Shown in pieces: positions 5,253 through 37,584 of a stretch of DNA of 64,000 nt. The position numbers and the translations under genes are program-made. Location of the stretch: the NCBI GenBank assembly GCA_041741375.1, contig JBGSKF010000143.1, positions 18,633 to 82,632 on the forward strand, in the 5' to 3' direction. This DNA is from Gemmatimonadales bacterium (GTDB lineage Bacteria; Gemmatimonadota; Gemmatimonadetes; Gemmatimonadales; GWC2-71-9). Numbering within the stretch: position 1 is the stretch's first letter; each line of letters begins with the position of its first letter. Under the pieces are notes generated by a model that saw only the letters and a list, made by a program, of their open reading frames with translations, had not been told where the DNA came from and made no database searches.

Positions 5253-6926
5253 ATGCCCTCCCCCTCCTCCCCCTCGTCCGACCCATTCTCCCTCAACCGG
5301 CGCAGCTTCCTCAAGTCGGGTGTCGCCGCCGGGGCCCTCACCGCGTCAGGAGCGACACTCGGCGCGGCGTGCGCTCCCGCCGCCCCGCCCGTGGATCCGT
5401 CCCGGGCGGCGCCCCCCGCCTTTGCCCTCGACGAGATCACGGTCGATGAACTGCAACGCCGGATGGCGTCGGGGGCGCTCACGGCGGTCTCCATCACGGA
5501 GCAGTACCTGGGCCGGATCGCCGCGGTCAACCGAGAGGGACCGAACCTCCGCGCGGTGCTGGAAACCAATCCCGATGCCCTCGCGGAGGCGGCGCGGCTC
5601 GACCAGGAAAGGAAGGATGGCCAGGTCCGGGGGCCGCTGCACGGGATCCCGATCCTGATCAAGGGGAACATCGCCACCGCGGACCGGATGACCACCACCG
5701 CGGGATCGCTCGCGCTCGAAGGAGTGATCGCCCCCGCCGATGCCTTCCTCGTGTCCCGGCTGCGCGAAGCGGGCGCCATCCTGCTCGGCAAGTCCAACCT
5801 CAGCGAATGGGCCAACTTCCGGTCCACCCGAAGCAGCAGCGGTTGGAGCGGGATCGGGGGACAATGCCGCAACCCCTACGCGCTCGATCGAAACACGTCG
5901 GGATCGAGCTCCGGTTCCGGCGCGGCGGCGGCAGCCAACCTCGCCGCGATCACGATAGGCACCGAGACCGACGGATCGATCACCTCGCCCTCGGGGGTCT
6001 GCGGCGTGGTCGGAATCAAGCCCACCCTCGGGCTCGTGAGCCGAACCGGCATCATCCCCATCGCCCACAGCCAGGATACCGCCGGCCCCCTGGCGCGCAC
6101 CGTTCGGGACGCCGCCATCCTCCTGGGGGCCATGGTGGGAACCGATCCGGCGGATGCGATCACCGAGGCGGCGGCGAGCCGGGGAGTGACCGACTACACC
6201 CAGTTTCTGGACCCGACCGGGCTTCGGGGCGCCCGGATCGGCGTGGTCCGGAAGGAGTACTCCGGGTTTCACCCCCGGGCCGATCTGGTTTTCGAGAGCG
6301 CCCTGGAGGCCCTGAAGGCCGGCGGGGTGGAACTGGTCGACCCGGCCGACATTCCCACCGCCGGCCAGTTCGATGAAGCGGAATACGAAGTGCTCCTCTA
6401 CGAGTTCAAGGCCGATCTCGAGGCGTATTTCGCCTCGCTCGGTTCCTCCACCTCACTGCGGACGATGGCTGATCTCGTCGCCTTCAACGAGGCCAACGCC
6501 GAGCGGTCGATGCCCTGGTTTGGACAGGAGATCATCATCGCCGCGGCCGCCAAGGGGCCCCTCACCGATCCCGCCTATCGGACGGCGCTCGCGAACTCCA
6601 AGCGGCTCGCCGGGCGCGAAGGAATCGATGCGGTGATGGATCGCCACCGGCTCGACGCCCTCGTGGCGCCCACCAACGCTCCCGCCTGGCCGATCGATTT
6701 GATCAATGGAGATCACTACCTGGGCGGAAGCTCGTCTCCCGCGGCCGTGGCGGGATACCCCAACATCACGGTGCCCGCCGGCGCGGTGTTCGGCTTGCCT
6801 GTCGGCATCAGCTTCTTCGGCCGGGCTTTCAGCGAAGGGGTGTTGCTTCGGCTGGCCCACGCCTTCGAGCAGGCCACCACCCGGCGGCGGCAGCCGACCT
6901 TTCTGAGGACGGTGGATCTGGGGTAG
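5253..6926 (+). CDS. amidase (amidase-signature family) with Tat signal
   Basis: ORF 4980..6926 trimmed to ATG 5253. Twin-arginine signal NRRSFLKSGVAAGAL, plus the amidase signature region GSSSGSGAAAAANL...GTETDGSI. Confidence 0.85.
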   Translation: MPSPSSPSSDPFSLNRRSFLKSGVAAGALTASGATLGAACAPAAPPVDPSRAAPPAFALDEITVDELQRRMASGALTAVSITEQYLGRIAAVNREGPNLRAVLETNPDALAEAARLDQERKDGQVRGPLHGIPILIKGNIATADRMTTTAGSLALEGVIAPADAFLVSRLREAGAILLGKSNLSEWANFRSTRSSSGWSGIGGQCRNPYALDRNTSGSSSGSGAAAAANLAAITIGTETDGSITSPSGVCGVVGIKPTLGLVSRTGIIPIAHSQDTAGPLARTVRDAAILLGAMVGTDPADAITEAAASRGVTDYTQFLDPTGLRGARIGVVRKEYSGFHPRADLVFESALEALKAGGVELVDPADIPTAGQFDEAEYEVLLYEFKADLEAYFASLGSSTSLRTMADLVAFNEANAERSMPWFGQEIIIAAAAKGPLTDPAYRTALANSKRLAGREGIDAVMDRHRLDALVAPTNAPAWPIDLINGDHYLGGSSSPAAVAGYPNITVPAGAVFGLPVGISFFGRAFSEGVLLRLAHAFEQATTRRRQPTFLRTVDLG

Positions 6927-6982
6927 GGAGTAGGGAATAGGGAATTATAGGGAATAGGGAATAGGGAGTAGGGAGTAGGGAT
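6924..6982. repeat. TAGGGA(A/G) heptad tandem array (about 8 units)
   Basis: tagggagtagggaatagggaattatagggaatagggaatagggagtagggagtagggat. The first triplet is the amidase TAG stop. Confidence 0.9.
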
Positions 6983-7057
6983 CTTGGGGCTCTCACAGAT
7001 CCCACTCCCTTCAAACGTCACAGTGGATCTCCAGGCCGCGAACGAACTCTCCCTTCC

Positions 7058-9335: not shown

Positions 9336-9406
9336 TCATTGATCATTGATCATTGATCGTTGGTCATTGATCATTGATCATTGGTCATTGATCATTGATC
9401 ATTGAT
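9336..9406. repeat. TCATTGA heptad tandem array (about 10 units)
   Basis: tcattgatcattgatcattgatcgttggtcattgatcattgatcattggtcattgatcattgatcattga. Overlaps the last codons and stop of the HEAT gene. Confidence 0.9.
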
Positions 9407-10885
9407 TCTTGCGATCGCCTCCTCCGCCGCACGCGCCACCACCTCATCCGAGTCCTTCTCCAGGGCACGGAGCGCGGGGACCGCGGCGGGCCCTGCCAGG
9501 GCGAGGGCACCCACCGCGCCGAGCCGCTCACTGCGCGGACGACTCCGGAAGCGCTTCGCCTCCGGCTGAGCCGCCCGCAGAATCGCCTGGATCGTGTCCG
9601 GAGTTCCGATCCGCCCCAGAGTCCGGAGCATCTCGCGCCGGACGTCGGAGTGGGTCTCCCGTTCCAGCAGCGCCGCCAGCACCATCCCGATGGAACGCCC
9701 GCGTCGCCGGCCATCGAGGTGCATCAAGGCCTCGAGGCGCACCGGGGCCGCGGGGTCCCGGAGCATCTGGCGGATCGGTTCCATTGCCTGGGAGGTGCCA
9801 AGTTTGGCCAGGGCTCCCGCCACCGAGCGACGCACCCTCTCATCCTCGTGATGAATCCTCCTGGCCAGTTCAGGGATCGCCTCCACCAGGTCCATGTCGC
9901 CGCAGAGATCCGCCGCGTTCCGCACCACGTACCACACCGGGTGGCTCAGGTAATCGATGATGATCCCCGCGTTTTCTTTCATCTGCGTCAGGGCTGTGTA
10001 ATATCCCCGCCGTTCCGCCATGCCATCCGCCGTCGCCAGCATCTCCATGAGCACCTCGGCGGAGCGGCCCCCGACGTGACGAAGCAAGGTGGTCGCTTCC
10101 CGCCGGCGGGTCCCGGTCCCCGTGGCTCGCGCCAGACGGTTCAGTGCCTCACCCCCGATCAGACGCTGGAGCTCGATCCGGCAGGTGCGCTGGAACTCCT
10201 GGGTCGCGGCCGACACCAGAAGTTCCTCGATGGCCACTCCCACTGTGAGAAGGTCATCCCACTGCTCGGTGTCCCGGGCCATCGTGCCCCTCTCGACCAG
10301 ATGGGCGAGTTCCTCCCGGGCCGGGGAGGTATCCACATCCACCGGGGCGGATGCCCCTTGGACCAGGTCGAAATCCCGGATCAGGTCGGCTGTGGTCTCC
10401 TCCCCATGCGAAACGACACCACTCGCCGGCGCCGGGGAACTCTCCAACGTGATGGGATCCTCCGCGGCCAGGTTGTGGATGACCAGATCGGTCCCGCTTT
10501 CACGCAGCGTCACCTGGGTCCTGACGGCATCCCCGAGAGAACCGGCGAACGAGGCGAACGAGGCGTACGTACCTCCCGGTGCCGCCAGAGCGCGTGCCAC
10601 TGCCAGGACAGGTCCCTCGCCACAATTCCGGGGGAATTCCACGACCCCGACATGGTGGATCAGCAATGTATCGCTGAGAAGGGTCGCGCCCGGGGCCTCG
10701 GGGTGGATCGCATGCCCATTCACCCAGAGGGTCCGGACCTCCGCCGCCATCGAGAGCCCCGTTTCGGCGATGCCTTGCAGAACGCGGTCGGTCACGGCCC
10801 GGACGGTTCGATCCTTACCCGGAATGTGGCCGAGAACGTGCACCAGAAGGGCGAAATCCGTTGTCAAGATGTGCGGCGTCATCAT
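9392..10885 (-). CDS. HEAT-repeat domain protein
   Basis: ORF 9392..10903 (TTG); first ATG at 10885. The C-terminal half shows HEAT-like repeats: VRRSVAGALAKLG, VRLEALMHL, VRREMLRTLGRIG, VVARAAEEAI. Confidence 0.65.
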   Translation of the reverse strand: MMTPHILTTDFALLVHVLGHIPGKDRTVRAVTDRVLQGIAETGLSMAAEVRTLWVNGHAIHPEAPGATLLSDTLLIHHVGVVEFPRNCGEGPVLAVARALAAPGGTYASFASFAGSLGDAVRTQVTLRESGTDLVIHNLAAEDPITLESSPAPASGVVSHGEETTADLIRDFDLVQGASAPVDVDTSPAREELAHLVERGTMARDTEQWDDLLTVGVAIEELLVSAATQEFQRTCRIELQRLIGGEALNRLARATGTGTRRREATTLLRHVGGRSAEVLMEMLATADGMAERRGYYTALTQMKENAGIIIDYLSHPVWYVVRNAADLCGDMDLVEAIPELARRIHHEDERVRRSVAGALAKLGTSQAMEPIRQMLRDPAAPVRLEALMHLDGRRRGRSIGMVLAALLERETHSDVRREMLRTLGRIGTPDTIQAILRAAQPEAKRFRSRPRSERLGAVGALALAGPAAVPALRALEKDSDEVVARAAEEAIARINDQ

Positions 10886-10906
10886 GTGACGTGACCAGAG
10901 CAAGGA

Positions 10907-11713
10907 TCATGCACGCTCAGTCGCCAATCGGTGAGCGAGTCGGTCACGTCTCCATTCCCACTCTCCAAGCTCAAGTTTCGCAACGATATCCAACAGCGGA
11001 TGCCGAGGAACACCGGGCGTGGCGGAGCGGGACAGCAATCGGGAAACCGGGAGGTCATGGACAATCTTTCCGCCCTCGAGAACCACACCCCGGTCCAGAG
11101 TTTCCGCTGCGAATACCGGATCATGTGTCACCGCGAAGACACTTCCCCCGCCGTGGAGATGCTCCCGAAGGAGACGATGGACCAGCTCGCGACTCCTCAG
11201 GTCCAGCCCCGCGGTCGGTTCATCCAGGATGAGGAGACTCGGCTCCGTCACCAATATTGTCGCCATGGCCACCAGGCGGCGGTGCGGAGCCGGAAGATCC
11301 CAGGGATTTTCCAACCGGGCGCCCGGAAGACCCACCCTCTCCAGCACCTCCGCCGTCCTCCTCCTCGTCTCTTCCCGGCCTACCCCCATCTGTTCGAGCC
11401 CGAAGGTCACCTCCGCCTCCACCGTTCGGGCAAAGAGTTGGGCCTCCGGGTGCTGGAAGAGGTAGCCCGCCCGACCGGCAAGATCCTCCGGGTGACGCCC
11501 CCCGGTGCCGGTCCCCAGCGTGGTGACGGTCCCCGAGGTGGGATGCAGGAGTGCCATGGCGAGGCGGGTCAGGGTGGTCTTGCCCGCGCCGTTGGAGCCG
11601 AAGAGGCCCACGGCTTCGCCGGCTCCCACCTGGAAGGAGACGGCGTCCAGCACCGGCGGGCCATTGCGGTAATGGAAGGAGACATCAGAGAAATCGAGAT
11701 GGGGTGTCGTCAT
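10907..11713 (-). CDS. ECF/ABC transporter ATP-binding protein (canonical Walker A, degenerate signature)
   Basis: C-terminal 268 aa of ORF 10907..12466 from ATG 11713. Walker A GSNGAGKTT, Walker B LLILDEPTAGLD, H-loop AVTHD. LPAPH replaces LSGGQ. Confidence 0.85.
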   Translation of the reverse strand: MTTPHLDFSDVSFHYRNGPPVLDAVSFQVGAGEAVGLFGSNGAGKTTLTRLAMALLHPTSGTVTTLGTGTGGRHPEDLAGRAGYLFQHPEAQLFARTVEAEVTFGLEQMGVGREETRRRTAEVLERVGLPGARLENPWDLPAPHRRLVAMATILVTEPSLLILDEPTAGLDLRSRELVHRLLREHLHGGGSVFAVTHDPVFAAETLDRGVVLEGGKIVHDLPVSRLLSRSATPGVPRHPLLDIVAKLELGEWEWRRDRLAHRLATERA

Positions 11714-19513: not shown

Positions 19514-19551
19514 CCCCGTCGGCATCCGGCCTGACGGATCCTTTCCCTCCC

Positions 19552-23298: not shown

Positions 23299-24531
23299 AT
23301 GACCAACTTGAAGGGCTCCCAAATGGGGAGTGGAGGCTGGGCCCAATACCCAATACCCAACACCCAGTACCCAATACGCAGTACCCGGTGGACGGGGTTG
23401 GGGGTGGTGCTCCTGGCCTTGGCTGCATGTACGGAACAGAAGGCTCCGCCGCCAGCCCTCTCGTCCGCCGATCTCGCGGAATGCTTTGCGGACGGGACCG
23501 AGGATCCCTGGCGCCCCGGCGCTGATGTGGAGTTGACCGGTACTCCCGCCGAATGGGCCCCGTTGTCTGCCGGAGGTCTGGTGGCCTTTGGAGAGGGGAT
23601 CATCGCCTACGACAGACACGCCGGCTCCGTGCATCTGATCCGGTCCCTCACCGAGCCCGCGGACTCTTTCGGGAGACTGGGGCAGGGGCCCGGCGAGTTT
23701 GCGTCGCCCGGAAACCGCGTCCTTTCGACCCCCGGGGTCGAGTGGATCGACCTGTTTCAGGACACCCTTGCCGTGCTCGATGGACGCGAGGTCCAGCTCT
23801 TCCGGACCGATGGCACCTTCCTCTCCCGGCTTCGAAGTTTCGACGACGCTGCAGGGCACATGCAGGTGTCGCGGAGGGTGCGCCGGGTACCCGGAGGGGT
23901 GGTGCTCGATCTCGAGCCCTGGGAGGGGAGGCGCGGTCCCGGGGGAGAGGTGCCACCGCGGCAATTCGATCTCTGGGCAATCCGGAACGACGCCGAGCGG
24001 CTCTGGTCCCTGTCACTCCCCGCCTTGCCGGTGTCACGCGACGGAGGAACCTATCACGGAGTCAACGAGGCGGATCCGCTGTGGGACCTCTCCGGACCCT
24101 GCTTCATCGTGAGCGACGGAGCGACGCCCCGCCTCTTCGTCGGGAGGATCGACCGGCGGGGTGTGGATACCATCCAGATCGAACTCCCGCCTGTCAGAAC
24201 CTCTCTCCCGCGGGACGATGAGAGTCGGGAAATGCTGCAACAACTCGGTGTGCGCGCAAGCACCCTTCCAGCACCGTCCGCTCGACGGAGGGTTCTGGAC
24301 ATGGTCATCGACCCCGCCGGCTGGGCGTGGATCCTCCCGGTTCAGGAGCGGTTGCCCGATGGGAGAGTGACCGTGGGCCGGATGGCGTTAAGAAGCGGGC
24401 ACACTCTGACCGACACGGTGCCGGTGTTTCCGAAGACATTCGGCGCTCCGGGGGTCCTCTGGGGATGGGCCGCGCCCGATTCGCTCGGCGATCAGCGTCT
24501 CGTCAGGGTGTCTCTTCGCCCGGCCAGGTAG
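23299..24531 (+). CDS. six-bladed beta-propeller family lipoprotein (paralog)
   Basis: ORF 23200..24531 from ATG 23299. Lipobox in ...GLGVVLLALAAC. Contains the GQGPGEFASPGN motif. Confidence 0.6.
   Translation: MTNLKGSQMGSGGWAQYPIPNTQYPIRSTRWTGLGVVLLALAACTEQKAPPPALSSADLAECFADGTEDPWRPGADVELTGTPAEWAPLSAGGLVAFGEGIIAYDRHAGSVHLIRSLTEPADSFGRLGQGPGEFASPGNRVLSTPGVEWIDLFQDTLAVLDGREVQLFRTDGTFLSRLRSFDDAAGHMQVSRRVRRVPGGVVLDLEPWEGRRGPGGEVPPRQFDLWAIRNDAERLWSLSLPALPVSRDGGTYHGVNEADPLWDLSGPCFIVSDGATPRLFVGRIDRRGVDTIQIELPPVRTSLPRDDESREMLQQLGVRASTLPAPSARRRVLDMVIDPAGWAWILPVQERLPDGRVTVGRMALRSGHTLTDTVPVFPKTFGAPGVLWGWAAPDSLGDQRLVRVSLRPAR
23342..23386. repeat. CCCAA(T/C)A heptad array within the N-terminal coding region
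   Basis: cccaatacccaatacccaacacccagtacccaatacgcagtaccc. Confidence 0.8.
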
Positions 24532-24750: not shown

Positions 24751-24840
24751 GCTGGGCGAATGTGATTCGCCCCTACCGCCCCTGGGCGAATGTGATTCGC
24801 CCCTACCGCCCCTGGGCGAATGTGATTCGCCCCTACACCG
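24751..24840. repeat. 30-bp tandem repeat x3, each with the hairpin gggcgaatgtgattcgccc
   Basis: Three contiguous units (g/c)ctgggcgaatgtgattcgcccctac(c/a)(g/c)c(c/g). The last unit contains the VapC stop codon. Confidence 0.9.
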
Positions 24841-25246
24841 GCATGATCACGGGTATCCGCTGCCGGCGGTTCCGGCGATAAATGGCGAAGTCTCGATCGA
24901 GGGTGACGACCACGCTGTCCCCGTCGAGTTCACTCATCCGGACCAGGCAGGCATCGGCGAGTGACATCGGCACCGAGGCGTACCGCGCCATCAGGGCGCG
25001 CAGGGCGGGAATCTCCGCGGACATCGAGAACACAGGCTCGATCACCCGGTGCTCGAGCAGGGCGAGCACGGCGTCCTGTCCACCCGGGAAGCGCCGCAGG
25101 AGAAAGCAGGTTTCCGACAGGACGGCCTCGCAGGTGCCGAGCGGCGGTTCGATGGTGTCGAACACCTCGCGCGCCCAGCGGTGATGCCGGTCGCGACGGT
25201 TCAGCAGCGCGACCAGAGGACCGGTGTCGACCAGGACATGGCTCAC
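24833..25246 (-). CDS. vapC: PIN-domain toxin (VapC-like), copy 1
   Basis: ORF 24833..25246. MSHVLVDTGPLVALL... with acidic residues in a PIN arrangement. 4-nt overlap with the antitoxin. Confidence 0.85.
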   Translation of the reverse strand: MSHVLVDTGPLVALLNRRDRHHRWAREVFDTIEPPLGTCEAVLSETCFLLRRFPGGQDAVLALLEHRVIEPVFSMSAEIPALRALMARYASVPMSLADACLVRMSELDGDSVVVTLDRDFAIYRRNRRQRIPVIMPV

Positions 25247-25482: not shown

Positions 25483-25513
25483 GGTATTACCTTTCGTACA
25501 TAATCGTAATACC
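25483..25513 (-). promoter_or_regulatory. inverted repeat abutting the antitoxin start (candidate operator), copy 1
   Basis: ggtattac (25483-25490) and gtaatacc (25506-25513) with a 15-nt spacer. The arms are conserved in copy 2. Confidence 0.45.
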
Positions 25514-25759: not shown

Positions 25760-25819
25760 GCTGGGCGAATGTGATTCGCCCCTACCGCCCCTGGGCGAAT
25801 GTGATTCGCCCCTACACCG
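25760..25819. repeat. 30-bp tandem repeat x2 (same unit as 24751)
   Basis: Two units. The last overlaps the VapC copy 2 stop. Confidence 0.9.
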
Positions 25820-26225
25820 GCATGATCACGGGTATCCGCTGCCGGCGGTTCCGGCGATAAATGGCGAAGTCCCGATCGAGGGTGACGACCACGCTGTCCC
25901 CCTCGAGTTCGCTCATCCGGACCAGGCAGGCATCGGCGAGCGACATCGGCACCGAGGCGTACCTCGCCATCAGGGTGCGCAGTTCGGGAATCTCGGCGGA
26001 CATCGAGAACGCCGGCTCGATCACCCGGTGCTCGAGCAGGGCGAGCACGGCATCCTGTCCGCCCGGGAACCGGCGGAGGAGGAAGCAGGCTTCCGACAGG
26101 ACGGCCTCGCAGGTGCCGAGCGGCGGTTCGATGGTGTCGAACACCTCGCGCGCCCACCGGTGATGCCGGTCCCGACGATTCAGCAGGGCGACCAGCGGAC
26201 CGGTGTCGACGAGGACATGGGTCAC
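25812..26225 (-). CDS. vapC: PIN-domain toxin (VapC-like), copy 2
   Basis: ORF 25812..26225. Differs from copy 1 at 6 of 137 residues. Confidence 0.85.
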   Translation of the reverse strand: MTHVLVDTGPLVALLNRRDRHHRWAREVFDTIEPPLGTCEAVLSEACFLLRRFPGGQDAVLALLEHRVIEPAFSMSAEIPELRTLMARYASVPMSLADACLVRMSELEGDSVVVTLDRDFAIYRRNRRQRIPVIMPV

Positions 26226-26461: not shown

Positions 26462-26492
26462 GGTATTACCTCTTGTACAAGAACGTAATACC
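26462..26492 (-). promoter_or_regulatory. inverted repeat abutting the antitoxin start (candidate operator), copy 2
   Basis: ggtattac (26462-26469) and gtaatacc (26485-26492). The spacer contains the palindrome cttgtacaag. Confidence 0.45.
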
Positions 26493-26559
26493 AACAAGCG
26501 GGCGGTCAACCCTTTCCCCCTGCCCCGACCCTCCCACACCTCGGGCGAATGTAATTCAC

Positions 26560-26625
26560 CCCTACACCCTACACACTACACCCCATTCCCTATTCCCTAC
26601 TCCCGACTCCCTACTTTCGCCCCTA
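26560..26625. repeat. CCCTAC-type degenerate heptad array
   Basis: cccctacaccctacacactacaccccattccctattccctactcccgactccctactttcgcccctac. The last unit gives the hydrolase TAG stop on the minus strand. Confidence 0.8.
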
Positions 26626-27579
26626 CGGGGTGTCGGCGCGCCGGAGAAAATCCCGGACCAAGCCGTAGATCGCCTCGGGGTTGTCATTCTCTGTTGCATG
26701 CCCCGCGCCGGGGATCACCGCGAACTGGGCGCCCGGCACGAGCCGGGAGAACTCCTCCGTCGCGGCCGGGGTCGCCTCGTCGAATTCGCCGGTGACGAAC
26801 AGGGCCGGCACCCGGATGCTTCGGAGCCAGTCGGTCCCATCGAAGGTTTTGAGCGTACCGGTCGAGGTGAACTCGCTCGGGCCCCACATGTAGTTGTAGA
26901 CAAAGCTCCCGCTCCGCTGACGGGCGCTGTCGGCGTCGGCGGCGAATCGCGGCGGCGTCCGGCGCAGGAACTGCGCGTAGTAGGCCTCCATCGCCGCCTG
27001 ATACTCCGGGTGGTCGGTGGTGCCCGCCGCCTCGTGCTCGGCGATGTGCCGTTGCATCGAGTCCGGGAGAAACCGGATCAGCGAGTCGGCGTCATGCTCC
27101 CAGCGGGCCGTGGTGACCAGCGGACTGGAGAAGGTGACGCTGCGGACTCCGGTGGGATTGGTGCCCATGTAGGCCTGGAGCAGCATGGCGCCCCAGGAAC
27201 GGCCGTAGAGGTGAACCTCCGTGAGGCCCAGGGAGTCCCGCAGGGCCTGCAGCTCCTGCACGTAGCGATCCACGGTGTAGAGGGTGGTGTCGGTGGGGTG
27301 ATCCGACTTGCCCGATCCCAGCTGGTCGTACCGGATCACCGGTCGGTCGTCGCCCAGGATGGCCCAGCCCTTGAGGCCGAAACTGGAACTGCCCGGGCCG
27401 CCATGGATCACGACGAGCGGGGTGCCGGGACCGTTCCCCATCCGGGCCCAGTAGATCCGGCCGCCGGGTACGGTGATGAATCCCTCGTCCGCGGGAGGGA
27501 GGGGGGGGACCGGAGGCGCCGCCGTGCACGAGAGCAGAACGGCGGCAAGGGAGAGGGGGAGCATTGGGCTCGATCGCAC
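26623..27579 (-). CDS. proline-iminopeptidase-family alpha/beta hydrolase, lipoprotein
   Basis: ORF 26623..27579. MRSSPMLPLSLAAVLLSC, HGGPGSSS, nucleophile elbow GRSWG, C-terminal GAGH. Confidence 0.8.
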   Translation of the reverse strand: MRSSPMLPLSLAAVLLSCTAAPPVPPLPPADEGFITVPGGRIYWARMGNGPGTPLVVIHGGPGSSSFGLKGWAILGDDRPVIRYDQLGSGKSDHPTDTTLYTVDRYVQELQALRDSLGLTEVHLYGRSWGAMLLQAYMGTNPTGVRSVTFSSPLVTTARWEHDADSLIRFLPDSMQRHIAEHEAAGTTDHPEYQAAMEAYYAQFLRRTPPRFAADADSARQRSGSFVYNYMWGPSEFTSTGTLKTFDGTDWLRSIRVPALFVTGEFDEATPAATEEFSRLVPGAQFAVIPGAGHATENDNPEAIYGLVRDFLRRADTP

Positions 27580-28007
27580 GGCAGGTCCTGGGAAACGGTG
27601 GGAGAGGGGGAGGTGGACGAGAGATCATATCGTGGGAACTCAACGGAGGGAAGTGAAGAACCCGGTTGCCGACCCTGGCTATGAGTCATCCCGAGCCGGC
27701 GGCGAGGGATTCGTGAACGTCGTTAGGGTGCTTCCCGTCATCCGGACCGTGAAGAGCGTTGCGGCAGGAGGGCCGAAGCACGGGGTCGAACAACTCACTG
27801 AATACACGGAGACGGTACCGGAGGGAAGGGGTGTGGGGTGCCGAGCCGAGCCTTCAAACCGGGAGAAACTGAAGGCTCACGCGAAGCCGCGAAGGGCACG
27901 AAGGAAAGGCGGAGTGGGCACCCGGCCGTGTGACCGGCCGCAGGGCCAAACCCGGGGCGAGAGCCCCGGGGAAAAGACTATCTCATGCCGGGATTGGCGT
28001 CACTTCG

Positions 28008-28706
28008 CTATCTTCGCCCAGCCCCCAGCCCCCAGCCCCCAGCCCCCAGCCCCCGCCGGACGGCCGCCTCCAATGGCCACTCCCACCCCGGCCGTTGGTT
28101 GTAGTCACGGAGCGATACTCCAAGTCCGCGAACCAGGTCGCGGAGGTGGGTGGCGGCGGTTAACGCTTCCTCGGCAAGAGCGTCGACGGTGGGACGGCAC
28201 CGTGGCAGGGTGGCCACCCGGTAAAGGCGGACCAGATCGCTGACCCGGCGGTGGAGCACCTTGGGCACGATCCGCTGGAGGTTGCGGAGGCTGAGACCCT
28301 CCGGAATCGGATGGGGTGAGGTGGTGACAGCCTCGCAGACGATGTCCTCCAGGATCGGGTTTCCAAGACGGGCGGCGAGCCATGCCCCCATTCGCTCTGG
28401 CGACAAGCGAGGCCGTGCGTTGACGGCGGCCACGATCTCAGCCGGGGAGATGGAGGTCCCGGTAGGAACCAGTGCCAGCTGTCGCTCGCGGAAGTCGAGT
28501 GGAGGGGAAAGAGGTTCAGGCCCATTTGCCGGGATGGCGGAAACGACAGGGACCATGAGAGGGAGGCTGGCGATTCCGTCGTGCAGGTAGGTCGTTGCAA
28601 TGCTGGAAGAGGGTGAGAGGATCCCGATCGTGCCGAGTGGATGATCGGCGACCGGCGCACCGACAGCAATGGTGTCGTAGGGTGGTGGCACATGATACGG
28701 TCTCAT
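28008..28706 (-). CDS. hypothetical protein (C-terminus encoded by the repeat array)
   Basis: ORF 28008..28706. No recognised domain. Ends ...RRGLGAGGWGLGAGRR inside the CCCCAGC array. Confidence 0.3.
   Translation of the reverse strand: MRPYHVPPPYDTIAVGAPVADHPLGTIGILSPSSSIATTYLHDGIASLPLMVPVVSAIPANGPEPLSPPLDFRERQLALVPTGTSISPAEIVAAVNARPRLSPERMGAWLAARLGNPILEDIVCEAVTTSPHPIPEGLSLRNLQRIVPKVLHRRVSDLVRLYRVATLPRCRPTVDALAEEALTAATHLRDLVRGLGVSLRDYNQRPGWEWPLEAAVRRGLGAGGWGLGAGRR
28017..28055. repeat. CCCCAGC heptad tandem array
   Basis: cccagcccccagcccccagcccccagcccccagccccc. Confidence 0.85.
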
Positions 28707-29272
28707 CTTGGCATCCCTCCGCGCTTAACCAGTTAAACATCACCATCCTCCAGCCCCAATCTATGCCCTTCTGCAAAGATACTCACAAGAGCGTAGTCCG
28801 CAAGACGGCTCCGTGCCCTTGGGCTGCAGTGTTCTGGAAGTCAGCTTACTGCGATTGTCGGGAGGTCACGTTACAGACGGAGAAGTGTGCCCCTGAAAGC
28901 GTTGCCGTCGGCAAAGCATGACGACAACGACCGGGCAAATCGTTGTCGAAGAACCCGACCAGGGGTCATTCCGGGGGCGTTCCTGGAATCTCCAGGCGGA
29001 GGACCAGTATCCGCTCCTCGAGTGGAACCTTCGCCGAGAAGCGGTATGCATCGTCGTTGACCCGGATGTCGAGAGGGAGGCCAACCGGAACGGAACAGAG
29101 ATGGAAGCGGCCCTCCGCACCGACTGTGATCTCGGCAGTCCGCATGCTCGATTTCACTCCCACCCCTTCGCCGACGACGAAGGCGCTGGCCTGGTTCCAG
29201 GAGATTGTCATGGAGAGGGGTGTCGAGTCCCCCGGGTTGATCACCTGGCCCAGGATTCCGCCCACCCTTTCA

Positions 29273-30748: not shown

Positions 30749-31461
30749 GGTCACCCAGGCGGAACAGTGACCCCACCCGCACCGATCCAAGCGGGTGGAA
30801 CGCTCGTGGGCACTGCGGAAAGGCGCCACGAGGATGTCCATCTGATATCAGATACCATAATAGAGAGATTGTGGGAGTCGCGCCAGCACGAATCTGCGCC
30901 AGAAGCGCAGCCCTGGCTCAGCCCACCCCTGACCATCCCCCAGCTCGATGTGGGGGTAAAGCTGACGGGATTCGGTGGGAAGTGGCGTCGAATCGGCCGC
31001 TGGGTGAACCCGACAGCCCGGCGGTCCGCCGCGTACCTCGGTGTGTCCGTGATTCTCAGGCAGCGACACTCTCCTGGCGCGGATCCGTGCTGGCGGCACT
31101 TGGCTGGAAGCGTTAGCGTGATGGGCGGGCATAGCGAACGGACGGCGGAACTCAGTCGAGCACCTCGATAGGGATGGAACTGGACTCGGCGTCTGCTGCT
31201 TGCGAGAGAGAAGGATGTCAGCCCATCTCAGGGAGCAGCGCCGTTCTTGGCGCGAATCCGTGCTGGCGGCACTCAACCTGAAGCGTTAGCGTATTAGCCG
31301 TCGCCAAGCAGGGGAATCGCACCCTGGGGTCCGGCCTTGTGAGGTGGAGGGTTATCGTGACTCATATGGACAGCGCTGCACGAATTGCAACCAGCCAACG
31401 CCCACGGTTTTCTCAGGGCTGGCACGGGGTCAAGAGAGGTCCCTTGGCGCGTAGTCGTGTA

Positions 31462-31914
31462 TTGGATCATCGAACGTGGCCGTGGGTCCGACTGTTGCTG
31501 GTGATTGGCTCCACAATGGTCGGGTGCTCGTCGAACGACATCGAACGGTTGCCACTGTCGGACGGTGCGCGGTTGAGTGACCTTACTTCGGGCGACAACG
31601 TGGCGATCCTCGTAATCGACCCGGCTGAGTGTGGCTCCTGCTCTCCAATTGTAACAACATGGATCCAACGGCACAGAGTGGATCCAGCGCAGGTGAAGTT
31701 GGTGTTGAGTCGGGCTCCCACGAGTCGAGAGCGCATCGATCTGAAACTGCAGCACATATCGGAAGACGGGGTGTTGAAGGATGGACTCGCTCGTCGGCTG
31801 ATCCTTGGATCAGGTGGGAGACGGCATCGCCCGGTGGCCATTGTCATGGAGAATGGCACCGCGGTGACCAGGTCGGACTTGGCCAGTGCACCTTGGGAAT
31901 CTGGAGGGCAATGA
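31462..31914 (+). CDS. thioredoxin-fold-like lipoprotein with CxxC
   Basis: ORF 31339..31914. TTG at 31462 gives (M)DHRTWPWVRLLLVIGSTMVGC (lipobox). AILVIDPAECGSCSP resembles a redoxin active site. Confidence 0.4.
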   Translation: MDHRTWPWVRLLLVIGSTMVGCSSNDIERLPLSDGARLSDLTSGDNVAILVIDPAECGSCSPIVTTWIQRHRVDPAQVKLVLSRAPTSRERIDLKLQHISEDGVLKDGLARRLILGSGGRRHRPVAIVMENGTAVTRSDLASAPWESGGQ

Positions 31915-31984
31915 CCGCGATTCGTTAGGTGCCAGCAGGTTGTGTGCCACGGCGGCATGCAAGAACCCTAGCAAGGAGAGCAGG

Positions 31985-32174
31985 ATGCGTCGTATCGTGC
32001 TGTTGACGGGTCTTTTTGGCCATCGGGTTCCTTGGAACCCTGTCCACCCGCACCTCGGCGGCCAGCGGAGGGCAGTACTGGGCTGATCTCTTCGGTTTCC
32101 CTGACTGCGTCTACAGTTGCGGGAACAATTCGGGGCACGACAAGTGCACGTGCTCCGAACCTCTCAACCCGTGA
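31985..32174 (+). CDS. small secreted four-cysteine peptide, readable only across a 1-nt shift in a T5 run
   Basis: aaggagag Shine-Dalgarno 5 nt before ATG 31985 (MRRIVLLTGL...). Dropping one T of 32013-32017 joins it to ...LAIGFLGTLSTRTSAASGGQYWADLFGFPDCVYSCGNNSGHDKCTCSEPLNP, stop at 32172-32174. Confidence 0.35.
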
Positions 32175-32210
32175 CGGTGAGTGCGGGTTGAGGAGTCGAC
32201 CCGCTGGAGT

Positions 32211-32248
32211 GCTTGTCCGGGGGCTGTGCGCATAACCCCCGGACAAGC
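32211..32248 (+). terminator. 13-bp perfect stem hairpin downstream of the small peptide ORF
   Basis: gcttgtccggggg (32211-32223), 12-nt loop, cccccggacaagc (32236-32248). No T-tract. Confidence 0.45.
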
Positions 32249-32367
32249 ATCGTCGTTGGAGAGAGGTTCGGCGGCGAGGTCGCGCCCGGGGGTCGTGTAG
32301 AAGTCCCCAGTGAACATGTAGAAGTTAGTCATCACCCGCCATCCCATGGAGTGACAATTACCTACCT

Positions 32368-33485
32368 ATGAAACAACCACATATCCTTCTGCTCGTCCTG
32401 GCCCTCGTGTCGACTTCTTGTATCGCCCCCTCAGGGTCGGACTCCAACTCCGGATCCGAAGAAGGTGCACCCGCACTCTCTCTCGTTGACTCCACCATTC
32501 TGCTCCTTCCAGACTCGGTACCCTGGGCAGGTTCGTCCATGTGGCGCGGGATGGAAGGAGACGGACCTACCTGAGTGATGTGGCATCGGGCAGGGTGATC
32601 CGGTTCAGCCGCAATGGCAATCTGGAGGCCATCTGGGGAAGGCGAGGATCTGGCCCAGGGGAATACAGGAGCATAGGGATGGTACACCCCCTCCCTGGCG
32701 ATACCCTTGCCGCCGTTTTCGATGAGGCATCCGCTCGTATTGACGTGCTTAGTCTCGATGATGGGGCGCTCCGGCGGACTCTGAGCGTGCCATTCCGAAG
32801 CACAGGAAAACAATGGACTTGGAAGGGAGATCGTGCTGTCTTCAGTCTTCCAGGCAGTCCATCGCTGATCGGAGTGTGGCATGCCGGACAGGACTCAACG
32901 GAGGTGTTGGGGATGGTACCGCCGGAGGTCATGGCGGGCTTGCCAACCTACATGCAGTACGGGCACTTGGAGCTGATCCCGTGGAGCGACGGGTTCCTTG
33001 CCCAGGTGCCCACCATGCCGGGTCTTCACCAGCTCGATGCCGCTGGCCTTGTCGTGGGTCATGTGCCTCTCCCGGCCGTGAAAAGGCGCGGACAGCCAAC
33101 GGACCTCCTGTTGCGCCATCAGGAAAAGGAATCCGCGGGACAACCGTTTGCGTACATCGGATCTGCAGCTGCCACCCTGGGCCATCTTTCCAGCGGAGAG
33201 GTGGCCGTAGTCCAGGTGGATATTGATGTAGAGAACGGCCCGCAGCGACAGGAGTTCACGAACCTGCGCTATTACGTCTCTATCGTCTCGGCCGACCTGC
33301 AACGAACATGTGCCGATGCCCTCGTCCCCTTCACCAGTGACTCTCCATTCCCAATCCCCCACCTGACTGGGGATACCTTGGTTGCTTTGGCTAGGGTAGT
33401 AAGCCCGAACGACAGCGTGCATACCATCGTGTACCGGTACGCGATCAGCTCCAACGGGTGCCGGTGGATGCCGAATCAAAGGTAG
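32368..33485 (+). pseudogene. six-bladed beta-propeller family lipoprotein, frameshifted after the signal peptide
   Basis: Lipoprotein signal MKQPHILLLVLALVSTSC is in ORF 32368..32574. The propeller body (GSGPGEYRSIG...) is in ORF 32541..33485. The frames differ by one nt. Confidence 0.55.
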
Positions 33486-34102
33486 GTCTGGACGGGGACC
33501 CTCCTCAGCGAACTGTTCCCGCCTCCGTCGTGGCGAAGGTGTGATGATGGATGCATGGCGCCATCCTCCCGGTCCAAGGACTCACCACCATCAGCGCCCA
33601 AGGAAGATGCGTCTTGAGTGTACACCGGAGCGTCACTCCGGCGAAGGCCACGTAGCGCAAAGTGCGGTGATGCCGGAAGTGCTGTGCGCTGCGCCCGCAG
33701 ATGCCACTACGCTCGGTCGCCATCCGAATTGCTAGCGGGTGGCGGCCGGGTCGCGTACGAGGCGGATGACCTCCAGGCTCACTCGACCCAGAAGTACGCG
33801 TGCCTTTGGAACCGTGTTGTTGTGATCGCACTCCAGGTATGGCTGGATTGGGAATGGCAATCGACGGGAGGGCTGGGACGCGGAAAGGTGGATGCCACAA
33901 GGAACTGCTGGGCGTCGGTGTACTCCTCTCCGGAGAGCTGGACGCCGCTCATGCGTCGTGGATTGCCAAGGTCTCGTTAGGTCTTGTAGGGGCGGCGACG
34001 GTTCCGTAAGAAACGTTGTATCTTGCCCGGCGGGCAGTGCAATGCGGTCGGCTGTGGGCTGTGTGGCTACCGGACGAGCGCGATGTTCCAAGGAGAGACG
34101 AC

Positions 34103-34940
34103 ATGGGTTGGAAGCGGCACGGTCTTATTGGCCCGATGAACGGCTCTCGATGGGGGGCGGGGACGAGCCTGATGGCGCTGGTTCTGGGCGTCCCTCCGCT
34201 CCATGCCCAGGGAGGTCTGAGAGGCAAGGTGGTTGACTCCGAAGGCGTGCGCCTCCCGGGAGTGGAAGTGGTGCTGCCGGAGGTGGGGCGTCAGGCGATG
34301 ACCGACAGTTCGGGCCTGAACCGCGTCATGGATATTCGAAAAGGCCGGTTCGAGGTCCTGTTCCGGCGGGTGGGGTACCAGCCCCTCCGGTTGCTGGTGA
34401 GTTTCACCGGGGGTTCAGGCGATGCCGTAGTGAATGTCGAGATGTCGCCGGAGGCCGTGGTGTTGCCGGAGGTGGAGACCAAGGCCCGGGGGCCGGAGGA
34501 GGTGCCCGTGAAGCTTCGGGAATGGGCCCGGCGCCGGCAGTTCAACGTGGGCGGGAAGTTCTGGGACGATTCGCTGTTGCGAACCCAGGAGTACAGACAG
34601 CTCCCGGAAGTGCTCCATGCCGTTCCCGGTGTCAGGATCATCCGGGCGATGGGTGGCCGGTATCTGGCCATCGGGGGGGGGGCGGGGAGCGAACGGCGTG
34701 CGAGGGGGTATGGATCCGAGGATTCCACCCGCGTGCTACGTCGAAGTATATCTCGATGGGGCGCGGCTCTCGTCGGCAGGAGTTCCCGTTAATCTCGACA
34801 ATATCCCGGTCCAGCAGATCGCCGCCATGGAGTTGTATCGCTCTGCCTCCGAGATGCCCGTCGAATTCAACTCCCCGGGAGCATCCTGTGGCGTCCTTGC
34901 CATCTGGACCCGGGTGGAAAGTGAGAAGGATGAAGGTTGA
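34103..34940 (+). pseudogene. CarboxypepD_reg plus plug-like secreted protein, interrupted at a G10 tract
   Basis: aaggagag before ATG 34103. N-part is in ORF 34016..34792 (GLRGKVVDSEGVRLPGVEVVL). C-part is in ORF 34617..34940 (CYVEVYLDGARL...CGVLAIWTR). The switch is at the G10 run 34673-34682. Confidence 0.6.
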
Positions 34941-35034
34941 AGGGAGAGGGGGGATCGGGCCCTCGCGATGAGGGGATTGTGGCTATCGCCTTACCGTCCA
35001 CCGCCCATAGCCAAATCGCCGGTAACGGTGGTCC

Positions 35035-35135
35035 CCCCACTCCCCACTCCCTATAGCTCCCTATCGCATATTCCCTACCGCCTACTCCCTACCGCCTACT
35101 CCCTACCGCCTACTCCCTACCGCCTACCCCTACCC
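35035..35135. repeat. CCCTAC-type array including CTACTCCCTACCGC x4
   Basis: ...ttccctaccgcctactccctaccgcctactccctaccgcctactccctaccgcctacccctacccctca. Abuts the ADOP stop codon. Confidence 0.85.
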
Positions 35136-35136
35136 C

Positions 35137-37584
35137 TCACCCGCCCCGCATCACCATCGCCGGATCCACCCGCGCAGCACGCAGCGCCGGAAGCCAGCAC
35201 GCCACGAGCCCCACCGTCACCATTACCAGTGCTACGAGGATCAGTGTCACCGGATCGTGCGGGGCCACGCCGAACAGGAGACCGCGGATGATGCGGGTCG
35301 CGAACAGCGCCCCGGCGATCCCCAGCACCAGGCCGATGCCGAGCAGTGTGCCACCCTCGCGGATCACCATTCCCTGCACCCGGCTCTGGTCGGCGCCCAG
35401 GCTCATCCGGATCCCGATCTCCAGGGTCCGGGCGCTCACCGAGAATGCCAGCACCCCGGCGATGCCGACGGCGGCGATGAGCACCGCCAGGAGTCCGAAG
35501 GCGCCGATGAGGGCGGCGTTCAGGCGGCGGGGCGCCACGCTCTGGCCCTTGATCTCCGACAGGGTCAGCACGTTCTCGATCGGATCCCGGGGGGCGATGT
35601 TCCGCACCAGCCGGGTCGCAGCCGCTCCCAGAGCGGACGCATCCTGCTCGGAGCGGATCACCAGGCCGCCGGCGAACACCACCTCCTGGGCAAAGGGCTG
35701 GAACAGAACGGGGCGTGGCTCGACATCGAGTCCTCCGTCCCGCGTGTCGCCCACCACGCCAACCACCGTGCGCCAGTCGCCCGTCACCGGAATGAATCGC
35801 AGCACGTCCCCGGTCCACGCCACCCGCTGACCGATCGGGTCCCGGTCCCCGAAGAGCCGTTTGCTCAGCGTCTCGTTGAGGATCACCACCAGGGCGCTCC
35901 CCTCGATGTCGGTGGAGGTGAACTCCCGTCCCCGCAGCACCGGGATCCCGGCCGCCCGGAAATACTCGGGACTCGCCGTGCGATACTCGGCGCGCGGGAT
36001 CGCCTCGCCGACGGCCAGGGCCCGCCCTTCCGCCTTCAACTCGAGTTGGAAGTCCGAGGAGCGGAGGGGGATCACCGAACCGACTCCCACGTCGCGCACC
36101 CCGGGGATCGCGGCGATCTCGTACTTCATCCGGTCGTAGAGCGCCCTGGTGGCGTCGTTGTCTCCATCTCCGCCGCTGACCGGCACTTCCATCGTGAGGA
36201 CCTCGCTCTCGCCCCCGGTGAGACCGGTGTCCACCTCCGAGAGTCGGAGCATGGTGCGGGTCAGGAGGCCCGCTCCGGTCAGGAGGATCACGGAGACGGC
36301 GACCTGAGCCACGACAAGCGCGCGTTGGAGCCGTTGGCGGCGCAGGGTGCCGCTGGCGCGCGCCACGCCCTGGGCCATCCAGGTGCCGAGGGTTCCCTCC
36401 CGGGCGAGCCGCGGCGCGAAGGAGAGGAGGAGGGCCACGGCCACGGTCAGCACCAGGGTGAAGCCCAGGACCATGGCGTCGAGCCGGATTTCCCCGGCCC
36501 GGGGAGAAACCCGTTCCGCGAAGGCGATGAGGAGCTGCAACCCGCCCGCGGCCAGTACGAGACCCAGGACGGCGCCACCCAGGGCCAGCACCAGGTTCTC
36601 CACCAGAAGCAGGCGGCGGAGGCGGCCGGCCCCGGCCCCCAGCGCGGCCCGGATCACCAGTTCATGCTCGCGTCGCACCCCGCGCATCAGGGTCAGGTTG
36701 GCGACGTTGGCGGCGGAAATGATCATCACGAAGGCCGCGGCGCCCATCAGGAGCCAGAGGGTCAGGCGCGCGCGCTCGCCGAGCACCTCGTGGAAGGGAG
36801 TGAGGGTGACGCGGTATCCGGACGCGGCATCGTAGGCGTCGGGGTGATCGGCCTGGACCCGGGCGCGGATCGTCTCCACCTCGCTGCGGGCCTGGGGCAG
36901 CGTGGCGCCGGGAGCCAGGCGGGCGATCATCTCCGTCATCCGGTGGGTTCGGCCCGTCACCATCATGGCGCTGGTGTGGTGCTCGCTGATCACCATGTTC
37001 ATCAGCGCATCCATCCGGTTCGGGAAGGTGGGGGCAGGCTCCACCACGCCAACCACCGTCACCGCTCGTCCGTCCACCAGGATCGTCTGTCCGACGATCC
37101 CACTGTCCCCCTGGAACCGCTTCAACCAGTACTCGTGGGTCAGGACCATCACGGGAGGCACGGCGGTGCCGTCGTCTCCGTCGGTCAGCAGCCGGCCCAG
37201 GGCCGGAGCGAGGCCCATGACCTGGAAATAGTTTCCGGTGACGAGCCCGACGGTCATCCGGACCGCGTCGTTGTCCCCCTGGAGGGTGTAGGTCATGGGG
37301 GAGTACTCGGCGATCCCCCCAAGGGTACTGGCGCCTTCCCGGAAGTCGTCGATTTCGGGCACGGAGAAGAGCACGTTCTCTCCGCCCGGGCCTTCGACCG
37401 ACTGGCGGAGGTAGACCAGCCGGTCGCCGTCGCGATGGGGAAGGGGACGGAGGAGCACGCCGCGCACCACGCTGAAGATGGCGGTGTTGGCGCCGATGCC
37501 GAGCCCGAGCGTCAGGACCACGGTGAGGGTGAAGCCGTGGGCCTTGGCGAGGGAGCGCAGGGAGAAGCGGAGATCAGCGAGCAT
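35137..37584 (-). CDS. ADOP-family duplicated MacB/FtsX-like ABC permease
   Basis: ORF 35137..37584 (815 aa). MLADLRFSLRSLAKAHGFTLTVVLTLGLGIGANTAIFSVV..., two FtsX modules. Confidence 0.9.
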   Translation of the reverse strand: MLADLRFSLRSLAKAHGFTLTVVLTLGLGIGANTAIFSVVRGVLLRPLPHRDGDRLVYLRQSVEGPGGENVLFSVPEIDDFREGASTLGGIAEYSPMTYTLQGDNDAVRMTVGLVTGNYFQVMGLAPALGRLLTDGDDGTAVPPVMVLTHEYWLKRFQGDSGIVGQTILVDGRAVTVVGVVEPAPTFPNRMDALMNMVISEHHTSAMMVTGRTHRMTEMIARLAPGATLPQARSEVETIRARVQADHPDAYDAASGYRVTLTPFHEVLGERARLTLWLLMGAAAFVMIISAANVANLTLMRGVRREHELVIRAALGAGAGRLRRLLLVENLVLALGGAVLGLVLAAGGLQLLIAFAERVSPRAGEIRLDAMVLGFTLVLTVAVALLLSFAPRLAREGTLGTWMAQGVARASGTLRRQRLQRALVVAQVAVSVILLTGAGLLTRTMLRLSEVDTGLTGGESEVLTMEVPVSGGDGDNDATRALYDRMKYEIAAIPGVRDVGVGSVIPLRSSDFQLELKAEGRALAVGEAIPRAEYRTASPEYFRAAGIPVLRGREFTSTDIEGSALVVILNETLSKRLFGDRDPIGQRVAWTGDVLRFIPVTGDWRTVVGVVGDTRDGGLDVEPRPVLFQPFAQEVVFAGGLVIRSEQDASALGAAATRLVRNIAPRDPIENVLTLSEIKGQSVAPRRLNAALIGAFGLLAVLIAAVGIAGVLAFSVSARTLEIGIRMSLGADQSRVQGMVIREGGTLLGIGLVLGIAGALFATRIIRGLLFGVAPHDPVTLILVALVMVTVGLVACWLPALRAARVDPAMVMRGG

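Follow-up and report, generated by a model that had tools for sequence, protein, structure and literature searches.

Heptamer arrays and a GTAG-headed hairpin repeat share bases with stop codons of conserved position in a Gemmatimonadales contig

The contig JBGSKF010000143.1 of a Gemmatimonadales bacterium (assembly GCA_041741375.1) carries short tandem repeats at the 3' ends of several genes. We analyzed a 64-kb stretch of this contig, hereafter called the window, which has a GC content of 61–70%. The genes of interest encode an amidase, a HEAT-repeat protein, two PIN/VapC toxins with RHH antitoxins, an alpha/beta hydrolase, and an ADOP-type permease with MacB_PCD and FtsX domains. All of these names were upheld by Pfam. 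With Tandem Repeats Finder (TRF), nine arrays with a period of 7 nucleotides (nt) and 5–15 copies each were detected in the window. The arrays are mostly intergenic, and several of their unit families recur at unlinked loci. The VapC and hydrolase genes are followed by a second type of repeat, a hairpin resembling repetitive extragenic palindromes (REPs). According to the original prediction, repeats of this kind land in, or grow into, the 3' end of a gene, terminate it anew, and have replaced the ancestral stop codon. Five gene–repeat junctions on which this proposal was based are indeed present in the sequence, subject to corrections for the VapC and hydrolase genes and for the open reading frame (ORF) 28008. 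The coordinates are compiled in Table 1.

For comparison we used public contigs of relatives and homologues, designated by L numbers. The nearest public relatives of the window are metagenome-assembled genomes (MAGs) of Gemmatimonadales. One of them, L002 (JBDIWC010000025), shares 93–98% nucleotide identity with the window across syntenic blocks, and in further relatives the hydrolase protein is 70–84% identical to that of the window. A single 91,167-bp NCBI contig encodes identical copies of the amidase (557 aa), ADOP, and ORF-28008 products.

Table 1. Genes and repeats of the window considered in this study
Feature	Coordinates	Strand	Remarks
GGGTGTT array	3805..3841	.	Stop-free; 31 nt past a gene end; TRF
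Amidase gene	4980..6926	+	Longest ORF from 4980, likely start 5253; stop TAG 6924–6926; Pfam Amidase 7.8e-90
TAGGGAR heptamer array, ~8 units	6924..6981	+	TRF; opening triplet is the amidase stop
(TCAATGA)x10 array	9336..9406	-	TRF score 121; stops on both strands
HEAT-repeat protein gene	9392..10903	-	Pfam HEAT_2 5.5e-22; 115 homologues
CCCAAYA array	23342..23386	.	Stop-free; 50 nt past the stop of one gene, ~11 nt ahead of the next predicted start
Three 30-nt tandem units of the GTAG-headed REP-type hairpin (GTAGGGGCGAATCACATTCGCCCAGGGGCG)	24752..24836	-	TRF, 100% identity
VapC/PIN toxin gene, copy 1	24833..25246	-	Pfam PIN 4.1e-13; RHH_1 antitoxin upstream at 25243–25608
Two REP hairpin units	25763..25814	-	First GTAG contains the VapC-2 stop at 25812–25814
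VapC/PIN toxin gene, copy 2	25812..26225	-	Pfam PIN; tandem duplicate of the cassette, 89% nt identity (blastn)
Composite, in sense order: stop TAG (26623–26625), half-REP GGGCGAA, 8 xGTAGGG heptamers (26560–26615), degenerate full REP GTAGGGGTGAATTACATTCGCCC	26543..26625	-	
Alpha/beta-hydrolase gene	26623..27579	-	Pfam Abhydrolase_1 6.2e-29; orthologues L002–L009
(CCCCAGC)x5.4 array	28017..28054	-	TRF, 100% identity; no stop on either strand
G-rich array (14-nt TAGGGAG+TAGGCGG, degenerate TAGGGG units)	35035..35142	-	TRF, sequence
ADOP-type MacB/FtsX permease gene	35137..37584	-	Pfam MacB_PCD and FtsX; 120 orthologues
TAGGACA x7, then CCCTACT x8.6 (AGTAGGG on the minus strand)	56243..56363	.	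Two arrays face to face; TRF

Stop triplets are physically contained in the repeats. The amidase gene ends with GAT CTG GGG TAG GGA GTA GGG AAT AGG G, where the TAG is, as predicted, also the first triplet of the TAGGGAR array, both by inspection of the sequence and by the TRF call. The 3' end of the HEAT gene reads GCA AGA ATC AAT GAT CAA TGA TCAATGA CCAATGA on the minus strand, and its last four codons together with the TGA (INDQ-TGA, 9392–9406) lie within the 10-unit array. The TGA of the ADOP gene (35137–35139) abuts its G-rich array (CGG GGC GGG TGA GGGGTAGGGGTAGGCGGTAGGGAG), and the same junction was found in the independent assembly L001, which derives from run SRR28170468. The arithmetic of the proposal is also sound: a perfect 7-nt unit with a stop triplet presents that stop in all three frames within 21 nt.

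The CCCCAGC array near the end of ORF 28008–28706 is stop-free and is read through as GLGAGGWGLGAG. It had been thought that this ORF ends within the array. The frame is open through the array, continues for two further codons (RR), and closes as GLGAGGWGLGAGRR-TAG, 6 nt separating the array from the stop. This orphan ORF (singleton cluster, no Pfam match) has a weak coding signal and was also called in the NCBI assembly.

The decisive comparison is that with orthologues lacking the arrays. For the amidase, the array-less orthologue of L147 (65% identity) ends with GAT CTC GGC TGA TCGATCGG, that is, ADLG-TGA at the same position as VDLG-TAG in the window. L015 carries a TAGGCGG array behind its TAG (GAT CTC GTC TAG GCGGTAGGCGA), and L021 (90%) a stop-free GGGTGTT array behind a TGA (GAT TTG GGG TGA GGGCGGGTGTTGGGTGTT). 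Thus, a single stop codon position is followed by three different arrays (window, L015, L021) or by none (L147). The stop triplet is TAG with TAGGNNN arrays and TGA with the stop-free GGGTGTT array. Among 120 homologues, the tail past the FLPT motif comprises 2–8 residues, and VDLG fits the consensus (ADLG, VDLTPA, ADLGG).

The ADOP gene gave the same picture. In 105 of 120 orthologues (at least 73% identity), the tail is exactly 7 residues long after the (V/I)DP motif and mostly ends with RGQ or RRQ; two deviate by 1–2 residues, and 13 were not placed by the motif search. The array-less loci L024–26 (83%) end with CGG GGG CAG TAA CCCGGAG, the stop occupying the same codon as in the window. 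In L002 and L023 (96–97%), the gene ends with CGA GGA CAG TGA ACAATGA and six (A/T)CAATGA units follow, whereas the window, L001, and L022 share GGC GGG TGA GGGG. The stop position was therefore the same in all sequences compared, with arrays that differ or are missing. The terminal bases follow the array: CAG-TAA occurs without an array, CAG-TGA with TGAACAA, and GGG-TGA with GGGGTAG, the last accompanied by two synonymous changes in the preceding two codons.

For the HEAT gene, the array-less orthologue of L020 (83%) ends with AALLPG-TAA and has a tail as long as that of the window. The array-less L148 (56%) stops one codon earlier, and the L019 protein (87%) is two residues shorter. Orthologous arrays of 4–5 (A/T)CAATGA units were found in L015 and L018 (84–87%), where the genes end with SEQ-TGA or NEQ-TGA inside the array. 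In the family alignment, the window stop lies no more than one column from the mode. The tail INDQ looks native rather than array-made, because xx(S/N)(E/D)Q recurs in distant members, whose tails include TLSEQ, HVTEQ, ALSEA, and HLND. The units do leave a trace in the coding sequence, as the acidic codon is GAA (E) beside the GAACAAT units of L015 and L018 and GAT (D) beside the GATCAAT of the window.

At the two VapC genes and the hydrolase gene, the repeat is of another kind. Their TAGs had been attributed to CCCCTAC heptamers. They do lie in a CCCCTAC motif; this motif is not, however, a plain heptamer unit but the GTAG head of the hairpin repeat GTAGGGGCGAATCACATTCGCCC. The REP core motif is GTAGGGGCGAAT-NNN-ATTCGCCC (23 nt), and the version GGGCGAAT-CAC-ATTCGCCC is predicted to form a GC-rich stem-loop with an 8-bp stem (ViennaRNA, -12.8 kcal/mol, z = -3.6). 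GTAG stands immediately ahead of every REP copy in the window; the same holds for 141 metagenome copies by construction of the search pattern. A pattern search of the window returned 6 matches against 0.58 expected, all of them within 24.7–26.6 kb. Both VapC genes end with CCG GTG TAG GGGCGAATCACATTCGCCC AGGGGCG GTAG GGGCGAAT, and the stop of copy 1 (24833–24835) lies in the first GTAG of its REP units. The hydrolase gene ends with CCG TAG GGGCGAA, and its heptamer array begins 7 nt after the TAG. This composite layout recurs in L023, while L002 has just the TAG and an intact REP, followed by the sequence that lies behind VapC in the window. A deletion between REP copies would leave such a joint.

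The array-less hydrolases of L004, L006, and L009 end with V(E/D)G(K/R)xx, 6 residues past the RR/RS motif, as in VDGKRR, VEGKRN, and VDGRPR. Those of the window and L002 (ADTP, VDAP) end 4 residues past it and are thus two codons shorter. In L003 the hydrolase extends 9 residues past RR/RS, with an AGGTGAA array of its own from the last codon on. The IDDRR terminus of L007 and L008, one residue shorter than the array-less tails, is coded wholly by three ACGATAG units. VapC homologues end with IPxxMP plus 0–4 residues; the window copies have one residue after the motif and are 1–3 residues below the 140-aa mode.

How do these data bear on the proposal that arrays enter gene 3' ends by insertion or expansion, so that a stop in every frame re-terminates the gene and replaces its ancestral stop and C-terminus? 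The shortened hydrolase and VapC tails, the deviating hydrolase lengths in other array-bearing lineages (L003 +3, L007 and L008 -1), the HEAT protein of L019, and the covariation of the last codons with the units would agree with it. However, the array-less orthologues of ADOP and amidase keep an identical stop position, and those of HEAT stop at the same codon or one codon earlier. Even array-coded tails look native: INDQ, INEQ, and VSEQ resemble LSEQ, VTEQ, and LND, and IDDRR resembles VDGKRR. Moreover, slippage adds units and pushes the flanks apart; it does not overwrite them. We consider re-termination largely refuted for ADOP, amidase, and HEAT, and quite unlikely as a general explanation. 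A small truncation of no more than three codons is possible for the hydrolase and VapC only. What remains of the replacement of ancestral stops concerns the triplet and the last 1–4 codons, which covary with the unit, while the position has not moved. TAA occurs in array-less ADOP and HEAT orthologues, TGA next to TGAACAA or TCAATGA, and TAG next to TAGGNNN units, ACGATAG units, or a REP. The comparison indicates that the array affects the identity of the terminal bases and not the position of the stop, and that the stop positions are ancestral.

As also predicted, the arrays vary by whole units. Over 12,681 nt, the only difference between L015 (NCBI) and L016 (ENA) is a single unit, (CCCAGTA)5 versus (CCCAGTA)4, and L007 and L008 differ in their counts of ACGATAG (12 versus 3.7) and GGCGACA (14.6 versus 6.7). 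Arrays also differ among close relatives behind the same stop, and the ortholog alignments indicate that they are exchanged between such relatives. Could the junctions be artefacts of short-read MAGs that were broken or mis-joined at repeats? The contigs L001 and L022 terminate inside the ADOP array, and the far side of that array, together with the 7.5-kb segment behind it, is backed by the assembly of the window alone. The gene–array junctions nevertheless recur in independent assemblies, namely in the window and L001 and in L015, L016, and L017 (NCBI, ENA, and JGI), and orthologous arrays are present in several species-level relatives. We regard an artefact as extremely improbable.

Among the arrays that carry a sense-strand stop, ten independent ones begin -20 to +10 nt from a stop codon. 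Three more stop-bearing arrays start elsewhere, two of them being second arrays in the same spacer. The overlap with the upstream ORF does not exceed 20 nt at any anchored site. Stop-free arrays never overlap a stop and lie 2–110 nt away from it. The corresponding convergent spacers without arrays are very short, with 7 nt between the HEAT and M42-peptidase genes (L148) and 13 nt between the amidase gene and its neighbor (L147). An array born in such a spacer necessarily touches a stop. This geometric explanation of the array position is inferred but sufficient.

In our view the data are probably best explained by intergenic heptamer arrays of several unit families, of the short tandemly repeated repetitive (STRR) or long simple-sequence-repeat type, together with a GTAG REP-type hairpin, both showing known repeat behavior around stop codons of fixed position. 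The repeats lie on the sense strand at gene 3' ends, where the stop triplet is either their first triplet or inside them. Arrays would arise, or be captured, in very short ancestral spacers (7–13 nt, convergent genes) and would hence begin at the stop. Unit gain by replication slippage would then move the genes apart, and other insertions would also lengthen the spacer. Through slippage or conversion among units, the junction may shift inward over the stop and a few terminal codons, which would be tolerated because a stop-for-stop swap is neutral and changes in a dispensable tail are nearly so. Stop-free units would be unable to enter the stop and would either remain outside the ORF or be read through, as in ORF 28008. 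The TAGs of the hydrolase and VapC genes would be the GTAG head of the REP, a behavior known for GTAG REPs. Finally, REP copies and arrays would mark the joints of cassette gain and loss, such as the duplication or deletion of VapBC and the 7.5-kb segment. The synteny breakpoints between the window and L002 coincide with repeats of both types.

Several observations weigh against this explanation. In present spacers of 130–440 nt, the stop-bearing arrays sit at the stop and not in mid-spacer (combined p ~0.02 in a conservative uniform-placement test). The spacers of 7–13 nt in array-less relatives make uniform placement within the present spacer an inappropriate null, and we therefore do not lean on this value; the explanation nonetheless requires the remaining spacer sequence to be a later addition. 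Since the same unit families occur at unlinked sites, purely local birth is insufficient, and copying between sites or selection on the sequence is needed in addition. Furthermore, the HEAT and M42-peptidase genes of L015 converge, and the arrays that follow them (11470–11590) are inverted copies of each other and are predicted to fold into a 48-bp hairpin that pairs both stop codons (-51.3 kcal/mol, z = -7.8), which looks designed rather than neutral. The sample is also small, with ~10 independent sites, all of them on MAG or metagenome contigs.

An alternative is that the arrays are selected 3'-end elements that must start at the stop, acting as G-quadruplex (G4) or long-hairpin terminators or stabilizers, or as multi-frame back-up stops that limit read-through and frameshift products. 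Besides the L015 hairpin, the sense-strand orientation of the stop-bearing arrays speaks for such a role, as does the retention of an array at the same site in relatives at 84–90% identity although the units change. The TAGGGAR array consists of purines only, with GGG every 7 nt and nine GGG tracts from the stop onward on the mRNA strand. It has no Watson–Crick fold (ViennaRNA, z = +2.1), resembles the G4-forming GGGNATC repeats (PMC4692102), and is a G-quadruplex candidate on the mRNA strand. On the other hand, the same sites are array-less, with no substitute, in relatives at 56–83% identity, and of the HEAT/M42 pair of arrays the window retains only one unit on the M42 side (TGAACAATC at 9200). 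Many arrays are stop-free, stand beside 5' ends, or lie in a divergent spacer, and the units are too diverse for a single structure. A scan for intrinsic terminators around the arrays revealed neither an excess nor U-tract terminators alongside or after them. As a general explanation, selection for such an element is doubtful. Some arrays may serve as RNA structures at the 3' end, although nothing in the data demands a function.

The two facing arrays at 56.3 kb occupy a spacer between a Fic gene and an alpha/beta-hydrolase gene, both of which border it with their 5' ends; the arrays lie at no gene 3' end, and stop-bearing arrays are thus not limited to such sites. A PolX-type DNA polymerase gene (HHH_8, DNA_pol_B_thumb, and PHP domains; 57888–59627) is located ~1.5 kb downstream. 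Across the window and the comparison loci gathered at that stage, period 7 accounted for 54 TRF rows (at least 3 copies) versus at most 12 for any other period, and TRF found no period-7 array in five non-Gemmatimonadales loci. The (A/T)CAATGA family was found at ADOP, HEAT, and M42, the TAGGNNN family at amidase, ADOP, hydrolase, and 56304, and the CCCAAYA family at 3805 and 23342. The array at 3805 is orthologous to a 14.6-unit CCCAAYA array of L015, and the one at 23342 sits in a segment that L002 lacks. Hexamer-based repeats are present as well, namely CCCGTA/CTCGTA x6 (19550–19586) and CCCTCT x6 (22065–22118), the latter within or at the start of a predicted gene (22059–23294).

Such sharing of unit families between unlinked loci could also mean that arrays and REPs belong to one mobile or enzyme-driven system, either of the REP-associated tyrosine transposase (RAYT)/HUH type or based on template-switch copying at stop-codon microhomology, which inserts at stops and spreads unit families within and between genomes. 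GTAGGG is common to the TAGGGNN units and the head of the REP, and both repeats are intermixed behind the hydrolase gene. At least 120 metagenome contigs, with a GC content of 33–67% and no similarity in the flanks, contain the exact REP, often as inverted pairs. These REP-bearing contigs hold 76 period-7 arrays in 697 kb, TAACTGA-type units included, compared to 14 arrays of period 6. This suggests a genome-level co-occurrence of REP and heptamer arrays across phyla. The breakpoints of synteny with L002 at arrays and REPs point in the same direction. However, Pfam scans of ~50 window ORFs, including those of the 7.5-kb segment, revealed no transposase, integrase, RAYT (Y1_Tnp), or reverse transcriptase; the matches were CarboxypepD_reg proteins and a defence island. 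Only 8 of the 76 arrays lie within 100 nt of a REP, versus 4.2% of the bases, and this enrichment is too weak for us to claim a local association. Furthermore, the REP TAG closes a long open frame in only ~10 of 141 metagenome copies, and stop supply by the REP is thus occasional and not the rule. A mobile system of this kind appears very unlikely. We hold it to be distinctly improbable that the stop-bearing arrays and the GTAG REP are two products of one horizontally spreading, stop-targeting system driven by a HUH/RAYT-type enzyme or by template switching. If true, such a system would explain the shared unit families behind unrelated genes, the array swaps behind a fixed stop, and the co-occurrence of the REP with a period-7 excess in genomes of 33–67% GC.

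The joints between the window and its relatives deserve a description. Two VapBC cassettes are present in the window, none in L002, and at least one in L023, and the REP copies look like recombination joints of these cassettes. Each cassette comprises VapB(RHH), VapC, REP units, and a long hairpin of 110 nt; the two form a tandem duplication (24560–25700 and 25580–26640) in which one copy contains 3 REP units and the other 2. The long imperfect hairpin (24590–24700 and 25600–25700), located downstream of the REPs, has the sequence CCACGGAGACACAGAGGGCACAGAGAGC ... GCTCTGTGTTCTCTGTGTCTCTGTGG and a predicted energy of -58.6 kcal/mol (z = -4.6). It is also found after the hydrolase gene in L002 and has no Rfam match; a search of the whole window with Rfam at the gathering threshold and with ARAGORN gave no match either. 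Integron attC sites were considered for the cassettes and hairpins and dropped, as neither a RYYYAAC/GTTRRRY core, judged by eye, nor IntI was found.

The second joint lies at the ADOP gene. Positions 27588–35144 (7.5 kb) are extra in the window, and ADOP adjoins the hydrolase gene directly in L002 and L023; in L002 the 46-nt array takes up nearly all of this spacer. The segment has a lower GC content (61–63%), is weakly coding, and comprises orphan ORFs and two CarboxypepD_reg-domain proteins; its presence goes along with a change in the array type and in the last three codons of ADOP. Another variable region is the defence island at 38386–55728, with DprA, type III restriction Res and Mod methylase, PIN, AAA_21(AbiEii-like) with RloB, HTH with PIN_3, SNF2 helicase, and Fic. 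L002 joins window positions 55728–55366 directly to 40356–38386 and lacks ~15 kb of this island.

Repeats of comparable behavior are known from other bacteria. The cyanobacterial STRR heptamers of Calothrix and Anabaena (CCCCAGT, TTGGTCA, CAACAGT) form several tandem families dispersed in intergenic DNA. The CCCCAGC and the (T/A)CAATGA/TTGGTCA-like units of the window presumably resemble STRR1 and STRR2, although they occur in another phylum and in a genome of the high GC content given above. We know of no functional or mechanistic data for the STRR heptamers or for the arrays of the window. The Calothrix heptanucleotides are mentioned in a study of G-rich heptamers, GGGNATC and GGGGAYT, in Xanthomonas and Nostoc (Rehm et al., 2015; PMC4692102). 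Those repeats lie on the sense strand with a bias to 50 bp or less from the stop, some of them overlapping it, and form inverted pairs between convergent genes; an increased stability of the flanking loci was reported. The sense strand of the window arrays likewise shows G3 tracts at intervals of 7 nt, no more than 50 bp from a stop and between co-oriented or convergent ORFs. At least four G3 tracts at 7-nt spacing near the stop were found for the amidase (nine GGG), and the ADOP and hydrolase arrays are similarly G-rich. The units, however, differ (TAGGGAR, TAGGCGG, xGTAGGG), TAGGGAR and TAGGCGG themselves hold a stop, the G4 is a candidate here, and the arrays coincide with indel joints.

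The frame argument has been made for the TAACTGA heptamers of Beggiatoaceae, cyanobacteria, and Bacteroidetes, of which 13 sets overlap the upstream gene's stop (MacGregor, 2015; PMC4679880). These heptamers and the stop-bearing arrays of the window are intergenic 7-nt tandem repeats with stops in all three frames in forward orientation, and the arrays of the window share the trait of overlapping only the very end of the upstream ORF (no more than 20 nt). They differ in having other units and many unit families in the window versus one, and most Beggiatoa sets point to a downstream start codon, whereas the stop-bearing arrays of the window are at 3' ends. TRF detected no TAACTGA array in the window. 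For the hairpin, the GTAG-tagged REPs are the obvious counterpart, as their termini often give a TAG stop to flanking ORFs (Di Nocera et al., 2013; PMC3733652). Both are short GC-rich imperfect palindromes with a 5' GTAG that lie downstream of ORFs in tandem or inverted groups, and the window copies supply the TAG stop to the hydrolase and both VapC genes. In contrast to the described REPs, the window copies are tandem 30-nt units at a single locus, and a heptamer array with the same GTAGGG head splits or precedes one of them. Our literature search found no match for the REP sequence string and no paper on such arrays in Gemmatimonadota.

Overall, the intergenic repeats of the window behave in a way already known from elsewhere; the case is lineage-specific, and the lineage is new. 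TAG-supplying GTAG REPs and stop-overlapping heptamers are already in the literature, and no new kind of biology is involved; the putative link between the REP and heptamer arrays across phyla is the sole part that could become more. In repeat-rich Gemmatimonadales, hypervariable repeats shape gene 3' ends, the identity of the stop codon, and the last few residues of proteins. Gene calling and pangenome clustering are affected, as is assembly, because contigs break in the arrays. A stop position that is held while the sequence encoding it is swapped is a small and clean case in which function is under selection and the bases beneath it turn over neutrally.

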